This document shows positions 1 to 9,932 of a DNA stretch of 10,284 bases, one piece after another. The stretch lies in the NCBI GenBank assembly GCA_964430885.1, contig CAYSHM010000011.1, forward strand, positions 85,384 to 95,667, in the 5' to 3' direction. The stretch comes from an uncultured archaeon (lineage in GTDB: Archaea > Thermoplasmatota > Penumbrarchaeia > JASLWR01). Position 1 is the first letter of the stretch. Each line of letters opens with the position of its first letter. A model generated the notes under the pieces. It made no database searches. It saw only the letters and a list, made by a program, of their open reading frames with translations, and was not told the DNA's origin. Made by a program: the position numbers and the translations under genes.

Positions 1-1962
1 TTCACTCTGTGGACCATACCTGATTCTGATACTATCAAGAATTATATGGAGGAAAATGAACCAAAATCCGCGGTTGTCATAGGGGGAGGTTTCATAGGTC
101 TTGAAATGGCGGAAAATCTCATTGCCCAAGGATTGAACGTTACCATTGTGGAAATGCTGGATCAGGTATGTCCCCCCTTGGATTCCGAGATGGCATCAAT
201 AATCCATTCTCACATAGCTGCCTCTGGTTGCAGGCTCCATCTTTCAGATGCGGTCCAGTCCTTCCACAAAGAGGATGGTCAAACAGTTGTTACTACAAAG
301 AGCGGTGCTGAATTGAAATGTGATATGGTCATCCTATCCATTGGAGTTAAACCCAATAACGACCTGTCCCAGAAGGCAGGACTGGAAATGGGTGACAGGG
401 GTGGGATCAAGACCGATGAACATATGTGTACCTCAGTGTTAGACATATACTCAGCTGGAGATGTTGTTGAGGTGACCGATTATGTATCCGGTCAACCGGC
501 AATGATTCCTCTAGCAGGTCCGGCCAATAAGCAGGGGCGCATTGTCGCGGATAATATATTCGGAAGGGACTCGGTCTTCAAGGGAACTCAAGCATCCTGC
601 GTGGTCAAGGTCTTTGATATGACGGTGGCATGCACCGGGAACAATGCCAAGATACTTGACCGGTATGGTATCCCGTATATTTATTCATATACTGAATCCG
701 GTTCTCATGCTTCATATTATCCTGGAGCCCAAATGATGAATCTCAAGCTACTGTTCAGTCCGGAGGATGGTAAAATTCTAGGAGCCCAAATTGTCGGTAT
801 GGAGGGTGCAGATAAGCGTATCGATGTACTGGCTACAGCTATAAGGGCAGGTATGACAGTGTACGACCTTGAAGAACTCGAGCTGGCCTATGCTCCACCT
901 TACTCCTCGGCTAAGGACCCTGTGAATATGGCTGGATTTGTTGCAAGCAACATCCTGCGCGGGGATGTTGAGAATATCCACTGGTACGAAATGGATTCTT
1001 TGGATATGGATGCCAATGTGCTGTTGGATGTACGTGACGACGAGGAACTAGAGATGAACCCATCTATCGATGGCTCGATCCAGATTCCCCTGAATCAGTT
1101 GCGGAAACGTCTGATTGAATTGGATAAGACCAAGACCTACATAATCTACTGTGCAATGGGTCAGCGAGGCTATATTGCCTACAGAATGCTAAGACAGAAC
1201 GGTTTCAATTGTAAGAATCTAAGCGGAGGCTATCATATTTATATGGCACCAAGGGCGGAACTGAAGGTGCCGGCCGCCCTTCCATCTATGATGGGTATGG
1301 TTCCCGAATCGGATGATGTTCATTTTGATCATATGGTGAACGCCTGCGGGGTGCCATGCCCAGGTCCCATAATGAAGCTCAGTAAGAAGATGGGCGAGAT
1401 GGAAGATGGAAAAGTACTGAAGATAACTGCTTCAGACAGAGGTTTTGCTTCGGATGTTCCGGGCTGGTGCGAGAAAAGCGGAAACCAGCTTTTATCCCTG
1501 AGTTCCGACAAGGGGATCTATACGGCAATAATCAGCAAGGGGAGGATAAGAGCCCCATGCGAAGGATTGGATACAGTTTATGATGAAGAGGAAGAAGGTG
1601 AATATATGGTGAACAAAACAGCAATAACAATAAACAGTTCGAAGGCGAAGGACCTGTTCCCCGCTTTCATACTGGCATCCAGCGCTGCCGCTTCAGGGGA
1701 AGAAGTTATACTCTATTTCACCCCCAACGCGGCCTCTGCACTGAAGAAGGGCGTGCTGGAGAGCATGGAGATGAAGGGTATGCCCAATATGGAGGATCTG
1801 GTGGAGGGCGTGGTATTCATGGATGGGCGTTTCCTGTTGTGCGAACTGGCTTTGAAGACGGGAGAGCTGACTGCGGAGGAATTGAGAGAAGAGGTGGAAG
1901 TGGTGGGGGTTACCACCTTTGTAATTGCTGCAGCGGGAGCGAAGATGACCTTTTCCTTCTGA
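1..1962 (+). CDS. CoA-disulfide/persulfide reductase (Cdr/Npsr family flavoprotein) fused to rhodanese, TusA and DsrE-like domains; 5'-partial
   Basis: Frame 1 is open from base 1 (FTLWTIPDSDTIK, resembling the FTLRxxxD segment that precedes the NAD(P)H-binding fold), so the ATG at 46 is internal and the N-terminal FAD-binding/catalytic-Cys region lies upstream of the window. Motifs: VVIGGGFIGLEMAE (NAD(P)H binding), TSxxDIYSAGD (FAD), PLAGPANKQG, ELAYAPPYSSAKDPVN (CoADR dimerisation domain). Then rhodanese (~970-1245; LLDVR, IIYCAMGQRG with Cys at 1150, NLSGG), TusA (~1327-1542; CGVPCPGP, DVPGWC) and a DsrE-like domain (1606-1959; LLCELAL with Cys at 1840). Confidence 0.92.
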   Translation, partial: FTLWTIPDSDTIKNYMEENEPKSAVVIGGGFIGLEMAENLIAQGLNVTIVEMLDQVCPPLDSEMASIIHSHIAASGCRLHLSDAVQSFHKEDGQTVVTTKSGAELKCDMVILSIGVKPNNDLSQKAGLEMGDRGGIKTDEHMCTSVLDIYSAGDVVEVTDYVSGQPAMIPLAGPANKQGRIVADNIFGRDSVFKGTQASCVVKVFDMTVACTGNNAKILDRYGIPYIYSYTESGSHASYYPGAQMMNLKLLFSPEDGKILGAQIVGMEGADKRIDVLATAIRAGMTVYDLEELELAYAPPYSSAKDPVNMAGFVASNILRGDVENIHWYEMDSLDMDANVLLDVRDDEELEMNPSIDGSIQIPLNQLRKRLIELDKTKTYIIYCAMGQRGYIAYRMLRQNGFNCKNLSGGYHIYMAPRAELKVPAALPSMMGMVPESDDVHFDHMVNACGVPCPGPIMKLSKKMGEMEDGKVLKITASDRGFASDVPGWCEKSGNQLLSLSSDKGIYTAIISKGRIRAPCEGLDTVYDEEEEGEYMVNKTAITINSSKAKDLFPAFILASSAAASGEEVILYFTPNAASALKKGVLESMEMKGMPNMEDLVEGVVFMDGRFLLCELALKTGELTAEELREEVEVVGVTTFVIAAAGAKMTFSF

Positions 1963-2286: not shown

Positions 2287-2399
2287 TATGTATTTATGTA
2301 TGATCCATTGGAAGGCAGTTGTGCCTGGGATATCTGAAGAAATTAAAGGAGATGGAATCCTTTTTCGCAGCAGTATTCCTTTGTTTCAATGTTGATCCA

Positions 2400-2431
2400 G
2401 TTATAAATAATGTGTATAAAAATTTAAAAAT
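2400..2431 (+). promoter_or_regulatory. Possible AT-rich TATA-type promoter region upstream of the transporter and multi-rhodanese genes
   Basis: TTATAAATAA (2401-2410), TATAAAAA and TTTAAAAA in the 158-nt gap after tusA. No start site can be verified. Confidence 0.3.
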
Positions 2432-2433
2432 AG

Positions 2434-2440
2434 CAGGTGA
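2434..2440 (+). promoter_or_regulatory. Ribosome-binding site CAGGTGA for the YeeE/YedE gene
   Basis: Lies 4 nt before ATG 2445. Confidence 0.7.
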
Positions 2441-2444
2441 AAAT

Positions 2445-3794
2445 ATGCCGAATTTAAGTAAAAACAGTTTGGACGAGTCCGATATCGAAGAGGGAGTAGA
2501 TAATCTCGATGATGATGAAGTCCCAGACTTTGATAATGTTGTTCCCGATTTCGGAGATGACGAGGTTCCGGATTTTGGTGAGGTTAAACTGACCGATTCA
2601 GGAACTGATGAAGGAAAAGAGCAGGGTATTCTATCAGAGCTCTACTGCAGGTTATTCGGAAGCTCGTGGGAAATGTGGTTGGGAAGCATTCTTCTGGCCA
2701 CACTGAGCATTTGTCTTTTCGTGATCTCATCTCCATGGGGTTCCAGCGGGGGTCTTGTGAACTGGGGTGACAATCTGTTTGGAGTTTTGGGTGCCTCATT
2801 CGGAAAGGAAGCTGTCGATATAGTTGATAACAAGTATGCAATGCTGTCTCTGTTAATGCTGATAGGGGCTTTTGGAGCCGCTCTTATGAGCAAGGAGTTT
2901 TCGGTTAGGGTTTCCCCTATACCGGAACTTGGAAAAGGTATTTTCGGCGGTCTACTTATGGGTTTGGGCTGCGTTCTGGGAATGGGATGTACTGTTGGAA
3001 ATTTCTTTAGCGGATTTGCGGCCTTGTCAGGCGGTGCAATTGTATTTGTTATCGGCCTCTTGATAGGAGTTTTCCTAGCGGTAAAATATCTACTTTGGGA
3101 AATGGAGAAGCATCCGAACTGGAGTTCCGGCAAGTCCTGGACATTTCTGAAACCTAAAACTGAAGGCAGGTCACTTCAGCCCTTAATAGGAGTTGTGGTC
3201 CTTCTCCTTGGAGGAGCTTTGGCTTTGACCTATGATGCTGCAGCTGAAAAGGTCCTCATTGGTTTTGTCTTGATAGGTCTGCTTATAGGTATAATACTTC
3301 AGCGCTCCCGATGGTGCATAGTAAGAGCTCTCAGGGAGACCTTTATGACTGGTGACGCCACGCCTACCATGGCAATAATAGCTGGAATAGTAGTAGGTAC
3401 AATAGGATTCACTACAATAAAGGCAATGGGTATCAGAAGCGAGATGACAATGGTTGCTGCGAACTTCTGGGTGCCGGCAATAGTAGGTGGAATCATATTC
3501 GGTTTCGGTATGACCATTGCCGGGGGCTGCACAGTAGGTTCTACCTGGAGGGCGGCAGAAGGACATGTTAAGCTCTGGTTCTCCCTTTTGGGAATAGTGA
3601 TAGCAGGCCCGCTTACAGCGGAATACATCAAACCCGAATTCCTGGATATGCTGCCTGCTTCAATGAACAAACAGGTGTTCCTTCCGGAACACTTCACTTA
3701 CACAGGTTCGTTCATCATTATGATGCTGATACTTCTGTTATGGTACATATTTGTGAACTGGAACGAACGGACGGGGAAATTATCAGCTTTGTAG
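2445..3794 (+). CDS. YeeE/YedE-family sulfur/selenium-compound transporter (YedE/FdhT-type half order) with acidic N-terminal extension
   Basis: Many Gly-rich hydrophobic helices. Family motifs: GGLLMGLGCVLGMGCTVG (Cys 2988), GIILQRSRWC (Cys 3315), GGIIFGFGMTIAGGCTVGSTWRAAEG (Cys 3528). Start moved from the TTG at 2319 to the ATG at 2445 because CAGGTGA (2434-2440) precedes it and the stretch just upstream is AT-rich and intergenic-like. Confidence 0.9.
   Translation: MPNLSKNSLDESDIEEGVDNLDDDEVPDFDNVVPDFGDDEVPDFGEVKLTDSGTDEGKEQGILSELYCRLFGSSWEMWLGSILLATLSICLFVISSPWGSSGGLVNWGDNLFGVLGASFGKEAVDIVDNKYAMLSLLMLIGAFGAALMSKEFSVRVSPIPELGKGIFGGLLMGLGCVLGMGCTVGNFFSGFAALSGGAIVFVIGLLIGVFLAVKYLLWEMEKHPNWSSGKSWTFLKPKTEGRSLQPLIGVVVLLLGGALALTYDAAAEKVLIGFVLIGLLIGIILQRSRWCIVRALRETFMTGDATPTMAIIAGIVVGTIGFTTIKAMGIRSEMTMVAANFWVPAIVGGIIFGFGMTIAGGCTVGSTWRAAEGHVKLWFSLLGIVIAGPLTAEYIKPEFLDMLPASMNKQVFLPEHFTYTGSFIIMMLILLLWYIFVNWNERTGKLSAL
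2508..2585 (+). repeat. Three in-frame acidic VPDF peptide repeats (DDDEVPDF-DNVVPDFG-DDEVPDFG)
   Basis: VPDF is encoded at 2520-2531 (GTCCCAGACTTT), 2541-2552 (GTTCCCGATTTC) and 2565-2576 (GTTCCGGATTTT). Confidence 0.85.
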
Positions 3795-3808: not shown

Positions 3809-6800
3809 ATGACAAAAGAAGATAAGATAATCACAGTTGTTTGTGTAATAGCTTTGATCGCATCCGTAATTCTTTTCTCCTTCATAGATACAGAAGGGGA
3901 CGGGAACAAGAAGGCGGATATCACAGAAGCCGAGGGAATGCTAGGTGCAACACGTTCATTCCTTTCATCAGGAAAAAATACCATGGTAACTGCAGAGGCT
4001 CTATATGCCAATCTCAACGACGGTTATTCCGGAAACGATCCCTTTATACTCAGCGTTAGAGGTGAAGAAGAATATGCAAAGGGTCATATTCCGGGCGCAG
4101 TGAACATACCTTGGAGAAGTGTTTTTACCGAGGACAACATCAGTAAATTACCCAAGAACAAGGAGATAGTTGTCTACTGCTACACAGGTCATACGGCCAG
4201 CCAGATCACTGCACTATTGAATATGGATGGATATGATGCGGTCTGTTTGAAATGGGGAATGTGCTCATGGACCACAAATGCCTCAGTTACAAAGGATATG
4301 TACTATACGCCGCCTTCTGTAGGCTACAAGACCATCTCCGGCAGTCAGCCGGGAGTTTGGTCTGGAACTAGATGCGGCGGTGATGAACCTGCTCCTGCAG
4401 CGGTTGGTGAAGATATTTCGGGGACGGAAGATGTTGACCTTAGAGGTGACATACATAATTATCTTGCATCCGGCAAATCACCAGCAATATCTGCTGGTGT
4501 CCTATACGATAATCTGAACGACGGTGACAGTTCCAATGATCCCTTTATTCTAAGTATTCGTTCCGCTGCTCAATATGAAATAGGTCATATACCTGGAGCA
4601 GTGAATATTGGATTCAAATCCCTTTTCACCGATGATAATATCTCAAAGCTTCCTGAGGATAAACAGATAGTCGTAGTATGCTACACTGGCCACACAGCCA
4701 GCCAGGCCACGGCACTTCTGAATGTGAATGGATATGATGCCATAGCCCTTAAGTTTGGAATGACGGGCTGGTCCTCAAATTCCACAGTAGCGCCTTCGGC
4801 TTTTGTGAAGGCTACGGCAGCTCACAACTATGAGATATCCCTTGGAAATGAAACTGGAGATATGGAAACAGCGGTTATAGCAGATACATCTGAGGTCATA
4901 CTAACAGCCACCCAGGATTTCCTGAAAGCGGGGAAATCCACGATGATAACCGCGGAAGCGCTCTACAACAACCTGAACGATAACTACGCTGGAAACGATC
5001 CCTTTGTCCTCAGCATCAGGAGTCCCGAGCAGTACGCAATCGGGCACATCCCTGGGGCAGTGAACATACCTTACAGGAGTGTTTTCACTGATGAGAACAT
5101 ATCCATGCTTTCAGAACAAACTGGGAACAAGGATGTTGTTGTGGTATGCTACACAGGTCACACGGCCAGCCAGGTTACAGCAATGCTGAATGTGCTGGGA
5201 TTCAACGCACAATGCCTCAAGTGGGGAATGTGTTCTTGGACAACCAACACCACAGTAGCTCCTAGCCATTATACCGCACCTACTAACGATTATCCTGTTG
5301 CAGCTGGCCCCTCACCGGGCTCCTGGCCGGCTTCAGGGACTAGACAGTGCGGCGGGGACGATACGGAGGGCGGAGGAGTTGAGGAAGATGCGCTGGCAGG
5401 TTCTGTATTCGATATAGTCAGGCCAGCCTGTAATAACTATCTTGCAGAAGGTAAAGCGCCTGCTACTTCCGCATCATCACTCAATGAGGTCCTGAATGAC
5501 GGTAATGACACCAACGATCCATATCTCTTGAGCATTCGTTCCTCATCTCAGTATGATATAGGACATATTCCAGGCGCAGTGAACATAGGTTTTACCTCAC
5601 TTTTCGATGAGGACAAACTTTCCATGCTGCCTACAGACAGGCAGATAATTGTGATCTGTTATACAGGACATACAGCCAGTCAAGCTACGGCTCTCCTAAA
5701 CATAAATGGGTATGATGCCATCGCCCTGAAATGGGGTATGACTGGCTGGACGTCTGATGCAGTTGTAGCTCCATCTGCATATAATAGGGATACTGCGGCA
5801 ATGAACTATCCGGTGGTCATGGGTGATCTGCCTGGGGGGATGGACGAGGGAATTATAGCTGACCCAGATGCCCAGGTAATCGATGCTACCAATGCATTTC
5901 TTTCCGCCGGCAAAGGGACCATGATAACTGCTGAAGCCCTATATTCGAACTTGAATGACGGATATTCTGGCAACGATCCATTTATCCTTTCAGTGAGAAG
6001 TGAAGAGCAGTATGCCAAGGGGCACATTCCCGGAGCAGCCAATATACCCTGGACGAAGGTATTTACCGAGGAAAACATTTCCAAACTACCCATGAACAAG
6101 GATATTATAGTATATTGTTATACTGGCCACACTGCCAGCCAGGTTACAGCCATGCTTAATGTGATGGGATATGATGCATTATGCCTGAAATGGGGTATGT
6201 GCTCATGGACATCGGACACCGCTATAGCACCTTCATGCTACCAGCCGCCTGCAATGGACTATCCAGTTGCTTCGGGTGATGATCCGGGAGCTTGGACCCG
6301 TACCCGGCAGTGCGGAGGAGAAACCGGAGATGGTAGCGGCGGAACCGAAATGGTTGGCGGAACCTCTACTGAAGTCATTAGGAAAACATGCAATAATTAT
6401 CTCATGGAAGGTAAACCCCCTGCAGTATCAGCTTCATCCCTCTATGAAAGATTGGAGGATAACGACACTGGAAATGATCCTTTTGTACTCAGTATCAGAA
6501 GCTCCGCTCAGTATTCATTAGGACACATTCCCGGAGCAGTTAATATTGGCATGAGCGGTTTGTTCGAGAAGGAGAACCTTTCAAAATTGCCCGCTGATGA
6601 TCAGCAGATAGTTGTGGTATGCTACACAGGCCACACTGCCAGCCAGGCTACGGCACTACTCAACATCAATGGTTACAACGCTACCGCTCTGAAATGGGGT
6701 ATGACTGGCTGGACCTCCAATGCTACTGTGGCCCCCTCAGCTTATGACCGTGCATCAGCCTGCTTTAATTATCCGGTCGTGATAGGTGAAAATGCCGGGA

Positions 6801-8743
6801 CCATGGAAGAAGGCATTATCGCTGACACAGCAGATGTGATACTTGAAGCTACCAATGGATTTTTATCTTCTGGGGGCAACGCCATGATAACCGCCGAAGC
6901 TCTATATGCTAACTTGAATGACGGGTATTCCGGCAACGATCCTTTTATCCTGAGCATACGAAGTCAAAGCGCTTATGAGGGCGGGCATATTCCTGGAGCG
7001 GTCAATATTCCGTATTCCAGTGTTTTCACTGAGGAGAACATTTCCGCCCTGCCGACAGATAAACCGATCGTGGTCTACTGCTTCACTGGCCATACTGCAA
7101 GTCAGGCCACAGCTATGCTCAACGTTCTTGGTTTCGATGCAGTATGCCTGAAGTGGGGAATGTGCTCCTGGACGACTAACACCACAGTTGCTCCTTCCTG
7201 CTATGATCCAAATACAGTAGAGGATAGGCAGGTTATTTCAGGCTCCGAACCGGGTACATGGACACGCACTAGACAATGCGGGGGCGAGATTGGAGAGGGT
7301 GGGACAGTAGAAGCAGTTTCAGGATCTGTTTTCGACATAACAAGGGCTGCATGTAATAACTATATGGCGGAGGGCAAACCTCCTGCCAAATCCGCAGCGG
7401 ACATCGAGTCTCTTCTGGATGACGGAGATCCCGGAAACGATCCCTTTGTGCTCAGTATTCGTTCCTCTGCCCAGTATGCTATTGGACATATTCCTGGAGC
7501 AATAAATATTGGCATGTCCGATCTATTTACTGAGGAAAATATGGCCTTGCTGCCGGACGATGATACATTGATAGTAGTGGTGTGTTATACTGGACATACA
7601 GCCAGCCAGGCCACGGCGCTTCTCAACATCAACGGATATAATGCCACTGCACTGAAATGGGGAATGACGGGCTGGACCACGAATTCAACAGTGGCTCCTT
7701 CCGCTTACCAGAGAGGCAGCGCATGCCATAATTATCCTGTTATGGTCGGTTCCGAAGCTGGATATCTGGATGGAGCCGAACTCGTGGCTCCGACAGATGA
7801 GGAGATAATCCTTGAGGCGTCAAGCACGTATCTGGAGGGCGGTGCCAAGTTCATCACGGCTGATAGTCTTTATTCCAACCTAGATGACGGCAATAGCTCC
7901 AACGATCCCTTTATCCTAAGCATTAGGAATTCTGCTGATTATGTATTGGGCCATATACCCGGAGCGGTCAACATACCCTGGAAAAGCTTATTCTCAGTGG
8001 GGAATCTCTCACTTCTGCCCCAGAACGACACACAGGTGGTTGTAGTTTGCTATACTGGTCAGACTGCAAGCCAGATCACCGCACTTCTTAATGTGCTGGG
8101 ATTCAATGCATCCGCCCTTAAACACGGTATGTGTTCCTGGACCACCAATACTACTGTGGCACCCAGTTGCTTCAATAACACAACTCACCAGAACTCCTAT
8201 CCCACAGTAGAGGGGAATACTAGGGACGGCTGTGGAGGCGAAGGAGGTTCCGGCGGAACCTATGAGGGCAGTGCAGATGAATGGGAGATGCTGAGGCAGA
8301 GCTGCGAGCGGTATGTGAACGAAGTGGATACGATGTATATTACTGCCGAGGCTTTGTATGCCAACCTCAACGACGGTTACGGCAATAATGACCCATATAT
8401 CATCAGTATTCGAGGTTCAGCAGATTATCAGGTTGGGCATATAGAGGGCGCTGTCAACATACCGGCTGGAAGCATATTTTCGGAAGAGTTTCTATCGGAT
8501 CTCCCCATGGATAGGCCGATAGTTGTCTACTGCTATACTGGTCAGGGGGCGTGTCACGTTGCGGCTCTCCTGAACCTCAACGGCTACGACGCCCTGTCCC
8601 TGAAATGGGGAATGTGTTCTTGGACCGACAACTCCACAGTGAACATGAACAAGTGCTATGACTCAGCTACCTCTGGACATAATTACCCCGTTTACGTTGG
8701 CGGGGAGGTTGGAACTTGGGAAGAAGGTGTTGAGGTAGCCTGA
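3809..8743 (+). CDS. Large membrane-anchored or secreted multi-rhodanese (sulfurtransferase) protein with 10 tandem domains
   Basis: N-terminal charged residues plus a hydrophobic helix (IITVVCVIALIASVILFSF). Then ten copies of NDP-F/Y-x-LS/IS-I/V-R ... GHI(P/E)GAxNI ... C(Y/F)TG(H/Q)xA ... LKxGMxxW, which correspond to the rhodanese GHIPGA, active-site-loop and LxGGxxxW motifs. Catalytic Cys codons are at 4178, 4679, 5147, 5657, 6116, 6620, 7079, 7583, 8048 and 8531. GGGGTGA at 3796-3802 precedes the ATG. Confidence 0.93.
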   Translation: MTKEDKIITVVCVIALIASVILFSFIDTEGDGNKKADITEAEGMLGATRSFLSSGKNTMVTAEALYANLNDGYSGNDPFILSVRGEEEYAKGHIPGAVNIPWRSVFTEDNISKLPKNKEIVVYCYTGHTASQITALLNMDGYDAVCLKWGMCSWTTNASVTKDMYYTPPSVGYKTISGSQPGVWSGTRCGGDEPAPAAVGEDISGTEDVDLRGDIHNYLASGKSPAISAGVLYDNLNDGDSSNDPFILSIRSAAQYEIGHIPGAVNIGFKSLFTDDNISKLPEDKQIVVVCYTGHTASQATALLNVNGYDAIALKFGMTGWSSNSTVAPSAFVKATAAHNYEISLGNETGDMETAVIADTSEVILTATQDFLKAGKSTMITAEALYNNLNDNYAGNDPFVLSIRSPEQYAIGHIPGAVNIPYRSVFTDENISMLSEQTGNKDVVVVCYTGHTASQVTAMLNVLGFNAQCLKWGMCSWTTNTTVAPSHYTAPTNDYPVAAGPSPGSWPASGTRQCGGDDTEGGGVEEDALAGSVFDIVRPACNNYLAEGKAPATSASSLNEVLNDGNDTNDPYLLSIRSSSQYDIGHIPGAVNIGFTSLFDEDKLSMLPTDRQIIVICYTGHTASQATALLNINGYDAIALKWGMTGWTSDAVVAPSAYNRDTAAMNYPVVMGDLPGGMDEGIIADPDAQVIDATNAFLSAGKGTMITAEALYSNLNDGYSGNDPFILSVRSEEQYAKGHIPGAANIPWTKVFTEENISKLPMNKDIIVYCYTGHTASQVTAMLNVMGYDALCLKWGMCSWTSDTAIAPSCYQPPAMDYPVASGDDPGAWTRTRQCGGETGDGSGGTEMVGGTSTEVIRKTCNNYLMEGKPPAVSASSLYERLEDNDTGNDPFVLSIRSSAQYSLGHIPGAVNIGMSGLFEKENLSKLPADDQQIVVVCYTGHTASQATALLNINGYNATALKWGMTGWTSNATVAPSAYDRASACFNYPVVIGENAGTMEEGIIADTADVILEATNGFLSSGGNAMITAEALYANLNDGYSGNDPFILSIRSQSAYEGGHIPGAVNIPYSSVFTEENISALPTDKPIVVYCFTGHTASQATAMLNVLGFDAVCLKWGMCSWTTNTTVAPSCYDPNTVEDRQVISGSEPGTWTRTRQCGGEIGEGGTVEAVSGSVFDITRAACNNYMAEGKPPAKSAADIESLLDDGDPGNDPFVLSIRSSAQYAIGHIPGAINIGMSDLFTEENMALLPDDDTLIVVVCYTGHTASQATALLNINGYNATALKWGMTGWTTNSTVAPSAYQRGSACHNYPVMVGSEAGYLDGAELVAPTDEEIILEASSTYLEGGAKFITADSLYSNLDDGNSSNDPFILSIRNSADYVLGHIPGAVNIPWKSLFSVGNLSLLPQNDTQVVVVCYTGQTASQITALLNVLGFNASALKHGMCSWTTNTTVAPSCFNNTTHQNSYPTVEGNTRDGCGGEGGSGGTYEGSADEWEMLRQSCERYVNEVDTMYITAEALYANLNDGYGNNDPYIISIRGSADYQVGHIEGAVNIPAGSIFSEEFLSDLPMDRPIVVYCYTGQGACHVAALLNLNGYDALSLKWGMCSWTDNSTVNMNKCYDSATSGHNYPVYVGGEVGTWEEGVEVA
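3938..8740 (+). repeat. Intragenic tandem repeat: five two-domain units with a period of about 950-980 nt
   Basis: Spacings between successive catalytic Cys codons alternate: 501, 468, 510, 459, 504, 459, 504, 465, 483 nt. One exact DNA match is CTGAAATGGGGTATGACTGGCTGGAC at 5726-5751 and 6689-6714, 963 nt apart. Boundaries are approximate. Confidence 0.9.
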
Positions 8744-8783: not shown

Positions 8784-8939
8784 ATATTATTATTAAATAT
8801 CCATACCTTGCCTGCTCATATCTCTTCTTTTAACCTATTTATTAATGTGGTTTAGATAAATAGGGAAGAAGAAATATCATCAAATCCACAATTATCATTG
8901 TTTCTAATATCCACCCTAAATTGCGGTTCGGTAATAAAA

Positions 8940-9932
8940 ATGGGACGGAATCGGAGTATTGATCAGTTCAGAGGCGTCGCCATTGTTTCAATGGTATTCT
9001 TCACAATGACCCTTAAGCTCAGTTCAGATCTGCCCGAACTACTTAAGCACAATGTCCCTGGCTCAGTCCATGTAGGGGATTTTGTCCTACCTATGTTTTT
9101 GTTTGCCAGTGGATTATCATTGGCGTACTACTTTGAGAATAATTTATCGAGAGGATCTCTTTGCAGCAGCAGTGCTCTTAAGGATATTATTGGACGTTTT
9201 ATCAAATTGGCATTTATTGGACTATCACTATCTTATTTCTCTGCATACCGACTCCTTGAAATGGACGAGGTCATGTTAAGCGCCATTTGTTTCTTGGCAT
9301 GTATATTCCTGTCTAGATTTAAATGGAAATTTGGTTTATTAATTATAATTCTTATCAACCTTTCTTATCTATTGCTCATCAAATTTGATCACACCTATAT
9401 TTTTTCACAACACTATCTTGGAGGATATCTATCAGTCCCCTATTATCTGCCGATTATGTTAAGCGGTTTTTTTGTAGGTCAGGATATGATCCTCAGAAGT
9501 GAAATGAATCATCTGACAGCTTCAACGAATAATGCCTCTGAAAACCCCATATCTGCAAATAATCTTTTATTAATGGTAGGAGTTATGGTTCTTTTTCTTC
9601 TATCCATGCTATTTGCCCAATTGGACAAGTTAACGGCTTCACCTTCATTTATGATGCTATCGATTTTGGTTTCTTTCTTTCTGTATATCGCATTTATTAA
9701 ATTCAAACTAAGTAATCCCATCGCTGCGCAGATAGAGTATATTGGTAAAAATCCCCTCCGTTTTTGGGTAATGATGTACGTGCTGCTGATCATCCCTGGA
9801 ATTATATATGTCAAAACTAAAGATGGCTCTTTCCCTCTTGAAATACCGTGGCTTGCAGGAATTACTATCAGCTCGGCAGCTATTTTTTTATTATGGAGTA
9901 TGTCAAAATTGGTCGATAGACTGAAGGATTAA
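8940..9932 (+). CDS. HGSNAT-like (heparan-alpha-glucosaminide N-acetyltransferase / DUF1624-type) multi-pass membrane acyltransferase
   Basis: N-terminal RNRSIDQFRG (RxxSxDxxRG motif), then LKHNVPGSVHVGDFVLPMFLFASGLS, which matches the H..G...D.V.P.FLF..G.S motif, followed by many hydrophobic segments. The ATG at 8940 is preferred over the TTG at 8898 because the family motif begins right after it. Confidence 0.75.
   Translation: MGRNRSIDQFRGVAIVSMVFFTMTLKLSSDLPELLKHNVPGSVHVGDFVLPMFLFASGLSLAYYFENNLSRGSLCSSSALKDIIGRFIKLAFIGLSLSYFSAYRLLEMDEVMLSAICFLACIFLSRFKWKFGLLIIILINLSYLLLIKFDHTYIFSQHYLGGYLSVPYYLPIMLSGFFVGQDMILRSEMNHLTASTNNASENPISANNLLLMVGVMVLFLLSMLFAQLDKLTASPSFMMLSILVSFFLYIAFIKFKLSNPIAAQIEYIGKNPLRFWVMMYVLLIIPGIIYVKTKDGSFPLEIPWLAGITISSAAIFLLWSMSKLVDRLKD

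Follow-up and report, generated by a model that had tools for sequence, protein, structure and literature searches.

A 10,284-nucleotide stretch of DNA from an uncultured archaeon of the Thermoplasmatota (assembly GCA_964430885.1, contig CAYSHM010000011.1, positions 85,384 to 95,667; hereafter the window) carries a gene for a protein with ten rhodanese domains, arranged as five two-domain modules. In every module the linker that joins the first (A) domain to the second (B) domain contains a cysteine. This cysteine is nearly invariant among archaeal-type homologues, falls in the only stretch of the modelled module that was predicted with low confidence, and has a counterpart in the C-terminal tail of a sister family of bacterial rhodaneses. 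On the basis of these data we suggest, with a probability of about one half, that a flexible peptide here bears the linker cysteine as a thiol exposed to solvent and maintained by selection: a built-in arm that would bind sulfur. An initial annotation, made from the letters alone, had noticed the motif and likened it to the swinging arm of the sulfur carrier SoxY.

A repeated linker motif in a ten-domain rhodanese

The open reading frame at 3809-8743 on the forward strand encodes 1644 amino acids without internal stops. The Pfam rhodanese model PF00581 matches ten stretches of the product (E 1.3e-163; 533 bits, where the cut-off is 22.2), and the NCBIfam PspE model matches single domains. The catalytic cysteine is kept in all ten domains, within a loop of the form C-x-x-G-x-x-[STA] (CYTGHTA, CFTGHTA, CYTGQTA and CYTGQGA). 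Alignment of the protein's own parts places the starts of the five modules at residues 39, 362, 685, 1006 and 1329. The modules are paralogues, 48–68% identical to one another; no tandem DNA repeats were found beneath them. Ahead of the first module lies the sole hydrophobic segment, which we read as a signal anchor: 19-residue Kyte-Doolittle windows scoring above 1.6 start only at residues 3–12. The gene and its parts are as follows.

3809..8743 (+): multi-rhodanese gene; 1644-residue product: an N-terminal anchor, then ten rhodanese domains that form five A–B modules (translation, Pfam, alignment)
3815..3898 (+): sole hydrophobic segment, about residues 3–30, read as a signal anchor
3923..4891 (+): module 1 (A1–B1), linker Cys189, codon 4373-4375, TRCGG
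4892..5860 (+): module 2 (A2–B2), linker Cys514, codon 5348-5350, TRQCGG
5861..6823 (+): module 3 (A3–B3), linker Cys835, codon 6311-6313, TRTRQCGG; the module modelled with AlphaFold2
6824..7792 (+): module 4 (A4–B4), linker Cys1157, codon 7277-7279, TRTRQCGG
7793..8740 (+): module 5 (A5–B5), linker Cys1475, codon 8231-8233, TRDGCGG

The tripeptide CGG occurs five times in the protein, at Cys189, 514, 835, 1157 and 1475. These are the sites (codons beginning at 4373, 5348, 6311, 7277 and 8231) at which the initial annotation had described TR-x(0-2)-CGG in every A-to-B linker, and a MAFFT alignment of the five modules brings all five cysteines into a single column (5/5 A-to-B linkers). The annotation was equally right about the surroundings of the motif. 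None of the four B-to-A linkers, those leading from an even to an odd domain, contains a cysteine, and the stretch after the motif is rich in glycine and acidic residues: G, D and E account for 50–60% of the 20 residues that follow each linker cysteine, against 21% of the whole protein. Shuffling the residues of the protein gave a mean of 0.35 CGG, and none of 5000 shuffles reached five. Because the modules are paralogues, we attribute the five-fold repetition to conservation since duplication, rather than to five independent coincidences. The CNNY and GMCSW cysteines, to which the annotation had also pointed, are present in the protein and are considered below. A further cysteine, Cys12 (window 3842-3844), lies inside the N-terminal anchor (..VVC..), as one does in the anchors of the relatives P0057, P0061, P0068, P0069 and P0152.

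Conservation of the linker cysteine among homologues

The multi-rhodanese gene is present as a single copy in the 3.13-Mb genome, and its occurrence within the GTDB class of the window is patchy (5 of 37 genomes, its own included, at E <=1e-40). A search with the whole length of the protein found relatives with ten, eight and six domains, at loci that include uncultured Thermoplasmata and Methanomassiliicoccales metagenome-assembled genomes (MAGs). The set used to assess conservation consists of 30 proteins (P0001 and P0005–P0033), cut into 243 domain units, of which 9 of odd length were dropped and 234 aligned. The linker cysteine is present in 99 of the 101 units with a long, A-to-B tail, versus 0 of the 101 units with a short, B-to-A tail. 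One of the two exceptions is a unit of P0017 that proved to be a misclassified B-to-A unit; in the other, module 5 of P0008, the cysteine has been replaced (TRSYGDNGGG).

The residues around the cysteine vary. Among 100 junction units the cysteine is followed by G in 86, by D in 11 and by E in 3; the second position after it holds D in 54 units and G in 35. On the upstream side, 91 units have an arginine within four residues. CGG is intact in 34, and the close homologues P0009 and P0015 are without any CGG. Nothing else around the cysteine is invariant. What has been conserved is therefore R-x(0-3)-C-[GDE] with a Gly/acid-rich spacer behind it, rather than CGG. Conservation of CGG among homologues was the test that the initial annotation had set itself: the cysteine passes it and the exact tripeptide does not, C-[GDE] being the motif that is kept.

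A wider census covered 529 junctions in 198 proteins. A cysteine is found in the linker at 145 of these junctions (64 proteins), and at 141 there is exactly one. G, D or E comes next in 123 of the 141 single-cysteine linkers, and 102 of these also have an arginine nearby. P0016, a protein of 2327 residues with 16 catalytic loops, has one A-to-B linker in which Cys-rich repeats (GCTDP.A.NYNP.AT.DDGS) are inserted after the linker cysteine.

A C-terminal form of the cysteine in bacteria

Nine loci (L007, L008, L012–L017 and L021) encode two-domain rhodaneses with a signal peptide that end in ...GGGxCG followed by a TAA stop, as read on the DNA. The sources of these CG-tail proteins include Chloroflexota/Dehalococcoidia MAGs, and the loci include Clostridia and Dehalococcoidales MAGs. 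The family is 42–44% identical to the modules of the window, belongs to the same rhodanese subfamily and has the same YP..G extension; in a MAFFT alignment its tail cysteine shares a column with the linker cysteine of the archaeal-type protein of L024. It differs in having one arm per protein, which follows the second domain and forms the true C-terminus, with no arginine before the cysteine and no domain after it. A listing of relatives of the L012 protein added 119 new representatives of 90%-identity clusters. The ending is CG in 100 of them, CS in 4, CGG in 1 and CGCP in 1, and the 13 without a cysteine in the last six residues are longer architectures or tail-less forms. In an AlphaFold2 model of the L012 protein (predicted local distance difference test, pLDDT, 90.2) the last seven residues (340–346) fall below 50.

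Some relatives end differently. The single-domain lipoprotein relatives P0225, P0228, P0230 and P0232–P0234 end in ...E-C-P-[VT]-C-P(-H/Y), a C-terminal CxxC tail instead of a single cysteine. In three loci with tail-less relatives, L018 (2201-2260), L019 (3784-3845) and L020 (1417-1466), a 10-bp hairpin lies about 19 nt past the TGA stop; it is conserved, L018 and L020 differing by a compensatory change, and is probably a terminator or regulatory hairpin. Selenocysteine insertion or a frameshift in these relatives was considered and is not claimed, the three downstream frames not being consistently coding.

Predicted structure of the module

Module 3 was modelled with AlphaFold2 from an alignment of 44 rows, giving a mean pLDDT of 92.7 and a predicted TM-score (pTM) of 0.91. 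A single segment falls below 50.

6302..6337 (+): residues 832–843 (TRQCGGETGDGS), module residues 148–159, the sole part of module 3 where pLDDT is <50 (AlphaFold2)

Cys835 is the fourth position of this segment. The initial annotation had called for AlphaFold confidence scores as a gauge of linker disorder, and the sole low-confidence stretch of the module is the one that holds the linker cysteine, which is thus predicted to be disordered.

In Foldseek comparisons each single domain matches the rhodanese fold with probability 1.0, a fold shared with the domains of the classical two-domain thiosulfate and 3-mercaptopyruvate sulfurtransferases, TST/MST (for example Azotobacter RhdA, 1e0c; SseA, 1urh). 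The likeness ends with the single domain. Against two-domain structures the query-normalised TM-score is at most 0.31, with a root-mean-square deviation of 12–22 Å across both domains, so that the modules of the window do not superpose on the classical tandem packing. Furthermore, a classical tandem rhodanese combines an inactive N-terminal with an active C-terminal domain, whereas both catalytic cysteines are kept in the modules of the window, which are part of a multimodular and apparently exported protein.

Linker cysteines beside domains without a catalytic cysteine

Five proteins (P0044 and P0047–P0050) fuse YeeE, a family of membrane transporters, to rhodanese modules. In all five the first linker keeps GQCGF, and in all five the B domain has lost its catalytic cysteine, as has the A domain in three; in P0048–P0050 the catalytic-loop cysteine is absent altogether. 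A search of genome contigs with P0048 gave no related locus. A linker cysteine is likewise kept beside a domain without a catalytic cysteine in P0023 (three junctions), P0066, P0073 and P0085. The initial annotation had envisaged an assembly line, in which each tethered cysteine shuttles sulfur between the active sites of its module. That proposal is too narrow, because the linker cysteine survives the loss of one or both flanking catalytic cysteines; its role would extend beyond shuttling between two active sites, and it would act in its own right.

Two single-domain relatives, P0182 and P0193, have the catalytic cysteine replaced and still possess tails of the form ..GTRQGCG.. / ..ATQCG. In P0045, P0046 and P0053 rhodanese modules are fused behind multihaem cytochrome c domains, and the linker cysteine is absent.

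Genomic context and export

The window holds four co-oriented genes. Those other than the multi-rhodanese gene are listed here.

46..1962 (+): 3' part of a gene for a CoA-disulfide/persulfide-reductase-like protein whose fusion partners are rhodanese, TusA and DsrE domains (Pfam Pyr_redox_2, Pyr_redox_dim, Rhodanese, TusA, DsrE)
2319..3794 (+): gene for a YeeE/YedE-family membrane transporter (Pfam Sulf_transp PF04143, E 1.2e-41)
8898..9932 (+): neighbour gene; the product is a polytopic membrane protein that contains an HGSNAT_cat-like acyltransferase domain (Pfam PF07786, E 8e-9)

In the window the multi-rhodanese gene comes directly after the YeeE gene, whose product passes PF04143 comfortably (143.7 bits against a cut-off of 27). 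The same arrangement is found at eight archaeal-type loci (L001–L005, L010, L024 and L028). Of the nine CG-tail loci, six likewise have YeeE next to the rhodanese gene, as does the partial locus L027, and YeeE also adjoins the tail-less relatives of L018 and L019; loci without YeeE are mostly short contigs. The bacterial loci are accompanied by genes for TusA, DsrE and FAD/Fe-S oxidoreductases, a neighbourhood of YeeE, TusA and DsrE that the CG-tail family has in common with the window. The frame of the gene at 46..1962 is open to the first base of the window, the N-terminal part lying upstream (L048); its product is matched by NCBIfam CoA-disulfide reductase models at scores under their cut-offs and is presumably the cytoplasmic acceptor and reductase of the system. 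Upstream of the window this gene looks split, but some of the letters there read N, and no frameshift is claimed.

Among the relatives are proteins with a lipoprotein or Sec signal, with an LPXTG anchor and with multihaem cytochrome domains, on which grounds we consider the family extracytoplasmic. For the protein of the window itself, the single N-terminal anchor points to the same location. Its 25 N-glycosylation sequons compare with 17.2 ± 3.6 in shuffled sequences, 52 of 2000 of which reach 25; given so weak an enrichment, the sequon count was dropped as evidence of export.

Several further features of the locus deserve mention. Upstream of the window are an HTH_10 regulator gene and hydrogenase-maturation genes; the latter, on the opposite strand in the organism's own genome (L048), are hypA, hypD, hypE-like and hypB-like, and hypF adjoins the homologous locus L002 (5783-8032). 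In L004 (7385-8362), as in the window, a gene for an HGSNAT_cat-like polytopic membrane protein stands 3' of the multi-rhodanese gene. The YeeE homologue begins with a very acidic N-terminal extension of about 100 residues (window 2319-2650), in which a D-D-E-V-P-D-F-G-like motif occurs three times ahead of the first membrane helix.

Comparison with SoxY and other exported sulfur proteins

According to two published accounts (PMC5336275, PMC6067878), SoxY carries sulfur intermediates covalently on the cysteine of a carboxy-terminal swinging arm, GGCGG, the motif being as defined in the second (PMC6067878). The proteins described here resemble SoxY in having a single Gly-flanked cysteine on a predicted flexible peptide of an exported protein, and the CG-tail sister family has the C-terminal, Gly-rich placement as well. 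They are unlike SoxY in that the arm would be borne by a rhodanese enzyme domain, not by an Ig-like carrier, and is internal and present five times in the protein of the window; in that the motif is R-x-C-[GDE] instead of GGCGG; and in that the partner would be a YeeE importer instead of the Sox enzymes. GGCGG as such is not found: the linker cysteine is preceded by R, Q or G, and GG follows it in 34 of 100 units. Nor does the SoxY model PF13501 match the 1644-residue protein (Pfam, E up to 0.01) or anything else in the genome, which is 91.6% complete. What stands of the initial comparison is an analogy, to which the near-invariant cysteine, the low-confidence linker and the sister family with its C-terminal tail all lend themselves; homology with SoxY finds no support.

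Exported rhodaneses are familiar from other settings. PspE and Sud are periplasmic single-domain enzymes for thiosulfate or polysulfide and are not linked to YeeE; neither is known to have a cysteine arm. The bacterial tail form of the putative arm ends in Cys-Gly, like glutathione.

Accessory cysteines and alternative explanations

Cysteines other than those of the catalytic loops and linkers recur at a small number of sites: C-x-K-W-G and GMC in the region of the last strand, APSC about 12 residues later and, in B domains, CNNY in helix 1 and C[HF]NY near the domain end. One pair of sites can be set apart.

4244-4264 (window), with equivalents in modules 2–5 and in P0005–P0033: GMC cysteine and later APSC cysteine

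In the 234-unit set 79 units have both of these cysteines, 11 and 1 have a single one, and 143 have neither. Over 766 domains (APSC/AGKC) the corresponding figures are 114, 33 and 6, and 613; the two are gained and lost together. Judged by this co-occurrence they probably pair as a disulfide within the domain, which removes the GMC cysteine as a partner of the linker cysteine. The initial annotation had named a stable disulfide, for example with the CNNY or GMCSW cysteine, as a finding that would refute a carrier role. The GMCSW half of that concern recedes with the GMC–APSC pair, and linker cysteines are kept where candidate partners are lacking (see below); pairing with the CNNY or C-x-K-W-G cysteine may nevertheless occur.

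A number of observations weigh against a sulfur-binding arm. GG, the most SoxY-like part of the motif, is kept in only 34 of 100 units. A pLDDT below 50 is not proof of disorder, and Cys835 follows the confidently modelled part of the A domain by just a few residues, so that its leash towards that domain is short. The YeeE neighbour scores under the cut-offs of the TsuA and YedE/FdhT subfamily models (NCBIfam), so the transported species may be sulfur or selenium. The others concern the accessory cysteines. Across the 529 junctions the C-x-K-W-G cysteine is present only in domains that have a linker cysteine after them (80 with, 0 of 384 without), which is how a disulfide partner would behave. 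The distance from the linker cysteine to the CNNY column, 23–25 residues in 77 of 99 cases, also fits a staple. Twelve junction units keep the linker cysteine with neither the C-x-K-W-G nor the CNNY cysteine, and these cannot be counted as twelve events. On a FastTree phylogeny of the 101 A units, built with the trait columns masked, the minimum number of state changes is 3 for the C-x-K-W-G cysteine, 11 for CNNY, 4 for either and 2 for the linker cysteine. Few state changes mean that a linker cysteine without a partner represents some 3–4 independent events, not 12.

These observations bear most directly on the proposal that the linker cysteine pairs in a structural or redox-switch disulfide, stapling the beginning of the linker either to the A domain (through C-x-K-W-G) or to the first helix of the B domain (through CNNY), and has no role as a carrier. 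The non-independent counts, the association in the junction census and the fixed spacing make a reversible or structural bond with these cysteines possible, as far as sequence comparison can tell. It is favored in addition by the finding that 63 of 72 CNNY-column cysteines come after a linker cysteine in the census, and by the fact that disulfides are common in exported proteins, the GMC–APSC pair in the same domains behaving like one. Against it stands the constancy of the linker cysteine, which at 99 of 101 far exceeds that of the supposed partners (C-x-K-W-G in 71 and CNNY in 58 of the 101 A-to-B units). Moreover, it is kept in the 12 units that have neither partner (about 4 independent events), in modules of P0030, P0031, P0032 and P0033 whose only cysteines are the two catalytic ones and the linker cysteine, and in the YeeE fusions. 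In the sister family the cysteine is penultimate in a predicted disordered C-terminal tail, and a CYNY cysteine is present in loci with the tail (8) and without it (5) alike. Finally, AlphaFold2 leaves the segment unordered although module 3 has both candidate partners, Cys792 and Cys861. We therefore regard a staple without any carrier role as rather unlikely. The first co-occurrence tables had pooled A and B domains, and were recounted per junction and on the tree. The co-occurrence of the C-x-K-W-G cysteine with the linker cysteine in 71 of 71 cases was set aside as a disulfide test, since it is uninformative inside the archaeal set, where the linker cysteine is nearly invariant.

A single exposed, conserved cysteine that is independent of the catalytic cysteines fits attachment as well as it fits a carrier role. 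The linker cysteine might bond to another copy of the protein, to YeeE or to an envelope protein, or link covalently to the envelope, the five arms being attachment points and not carriers; the arms of SoxY themselves cross-link through the arm cysteine (PMC5336275). No partner has been identified, the C-terminal ...CG tails occur on soluble secreted proteins, and the anoxic, sulfidic setting suggested by the hydrogenase-maturation and persulfide-reductase-like neighbours would disfavour stable disulfides: attachment strikes us as improbable. Selenium or a thiophilic metal as the ligand of the cysteine and its run of Asp, Glu and Gly, with the locus as an uptake system for either, appears more improbable still. 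The best NCBIfam match of the YeeE neighbour is to the selenium-metabolism model YedE/FdhT (E 2.8e-45) and several rhodanese matches are to selenium-related models, but every such match is under its curated cut-off (155 bits against 350 in the case of YeeE), and TusA, DsrE and the CoA-disulfide/persulfide-reductase-like protein belong to sulfur-trafficking families. The alternative offered by the initial annotation, a lipoprotein-type processing or proteolytic cleavage site between TR and xC, remnant or live, that would release separate modules, finds no support and can hardly be credited. It is true that the bacterial two-domain relatives are lipoproteins in which the lipobox cysteine is followed by a similar G/S/D-rich tether, and that the C-terminal-tail family ends exactly after C-G, as cleavage after CG would give. 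A lipobox, however, has the consensus [LVI][ASTVI][GAS]-C (L-[AS]-[GA] at positions -3 to -1) and follows a hydrophobic signal region. No hydrophobic region lies ahead of any of the five cysteines, the 20 residues upstream being hydrophilic (mean hydropathy -0.5 to -1.6), and positions -3 to -1 are T/R/G, R/Q/T and G/Q/R. The lipobox of the bacterial relatives stands ahead of the first domain instead of the second, and a mere remnant would not persist in 99 of 101 units.

A possible role in sulfur import

If the linker cysteine is a sulfur-binding arm, the order of parts in each module suggests how it might work. The A-type domain ends in a short extension (..YP..G..PG.W), to which R-x(0-3)-Cys and then the Gly/Asp/Glu-rich spacer, presumably flexible, are joined. 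Outside the cell, polysulfide, thiosulfate or elemental sulfur would supply sulfane sulfur, which the active-site cysteines of the rhodanese domains would take up as persulfides. This sulfur would then be accepted or held by the arm cysteine as a persulfide or polysulfide adduct, the nearby arginine raising the reactivity of the cysteine and favoring the thiolate and anionic sulfur. The spacer would allow the cysteine to move, so that the arm could present its sulfur to the YeeE importer encoded just upstream. In the cytoplasm the TusA, DsrE and rhodanese domains of the CoA-disulfide-reductase-like protein would take the sulfur over and reduce it. The accessory cysteines of C-x-K-W-G (A domain) and CNNY (B helix 1) might serve as reversible parking, docking or resolving partners of the arm.

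Taken one step further, the cysteine arm could be the missing presenter of YeeE-type importers: a tethered thiol that feeds extracellular sulfane sulfur into the YeeE pore. The Thermoplasmata protein would then be a membrane-proximal conveyor with five arms and two rhodanese loaders per arm, and the arm alone would do the chemistry where the catalytic cysteines have been lost. We offer this extension tentatively and consider it doubtful as a whole.

In one published account (PMC11582611) the presentation of sulfur to YeeE-like SoxT transporters is treated as unresolved, and periplasmic thiol proteins with C-terminal cysteine motifs are proposed. Neither a cysteine arm on exported rhodaneses nor multi-rhodanese proteins of Thermoplasmata were found described in the open-access full texts searched. 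What would be new here, by analogy, is a swinging-arm sulfur carrier of the kind known from SoxY joined to a rhodanese. For the hand-over of sulfur to importers of the YeeE/SoxT type, this near-invariant cysteine, which exported rhodaneses across the family bear on a peptide predicted to be flexible, offers a concrete candidate. Thermoplasmata have the putative arm inside the chain and several times over, at least 100 bacterial sequence clusters have it at the C-terminus, and in either case the gene stands beside YeeE. If this reading is true, the principle of the SoxY swinging-arm carrier would be extended to an enzyme-borne, multimerised form in archaea.

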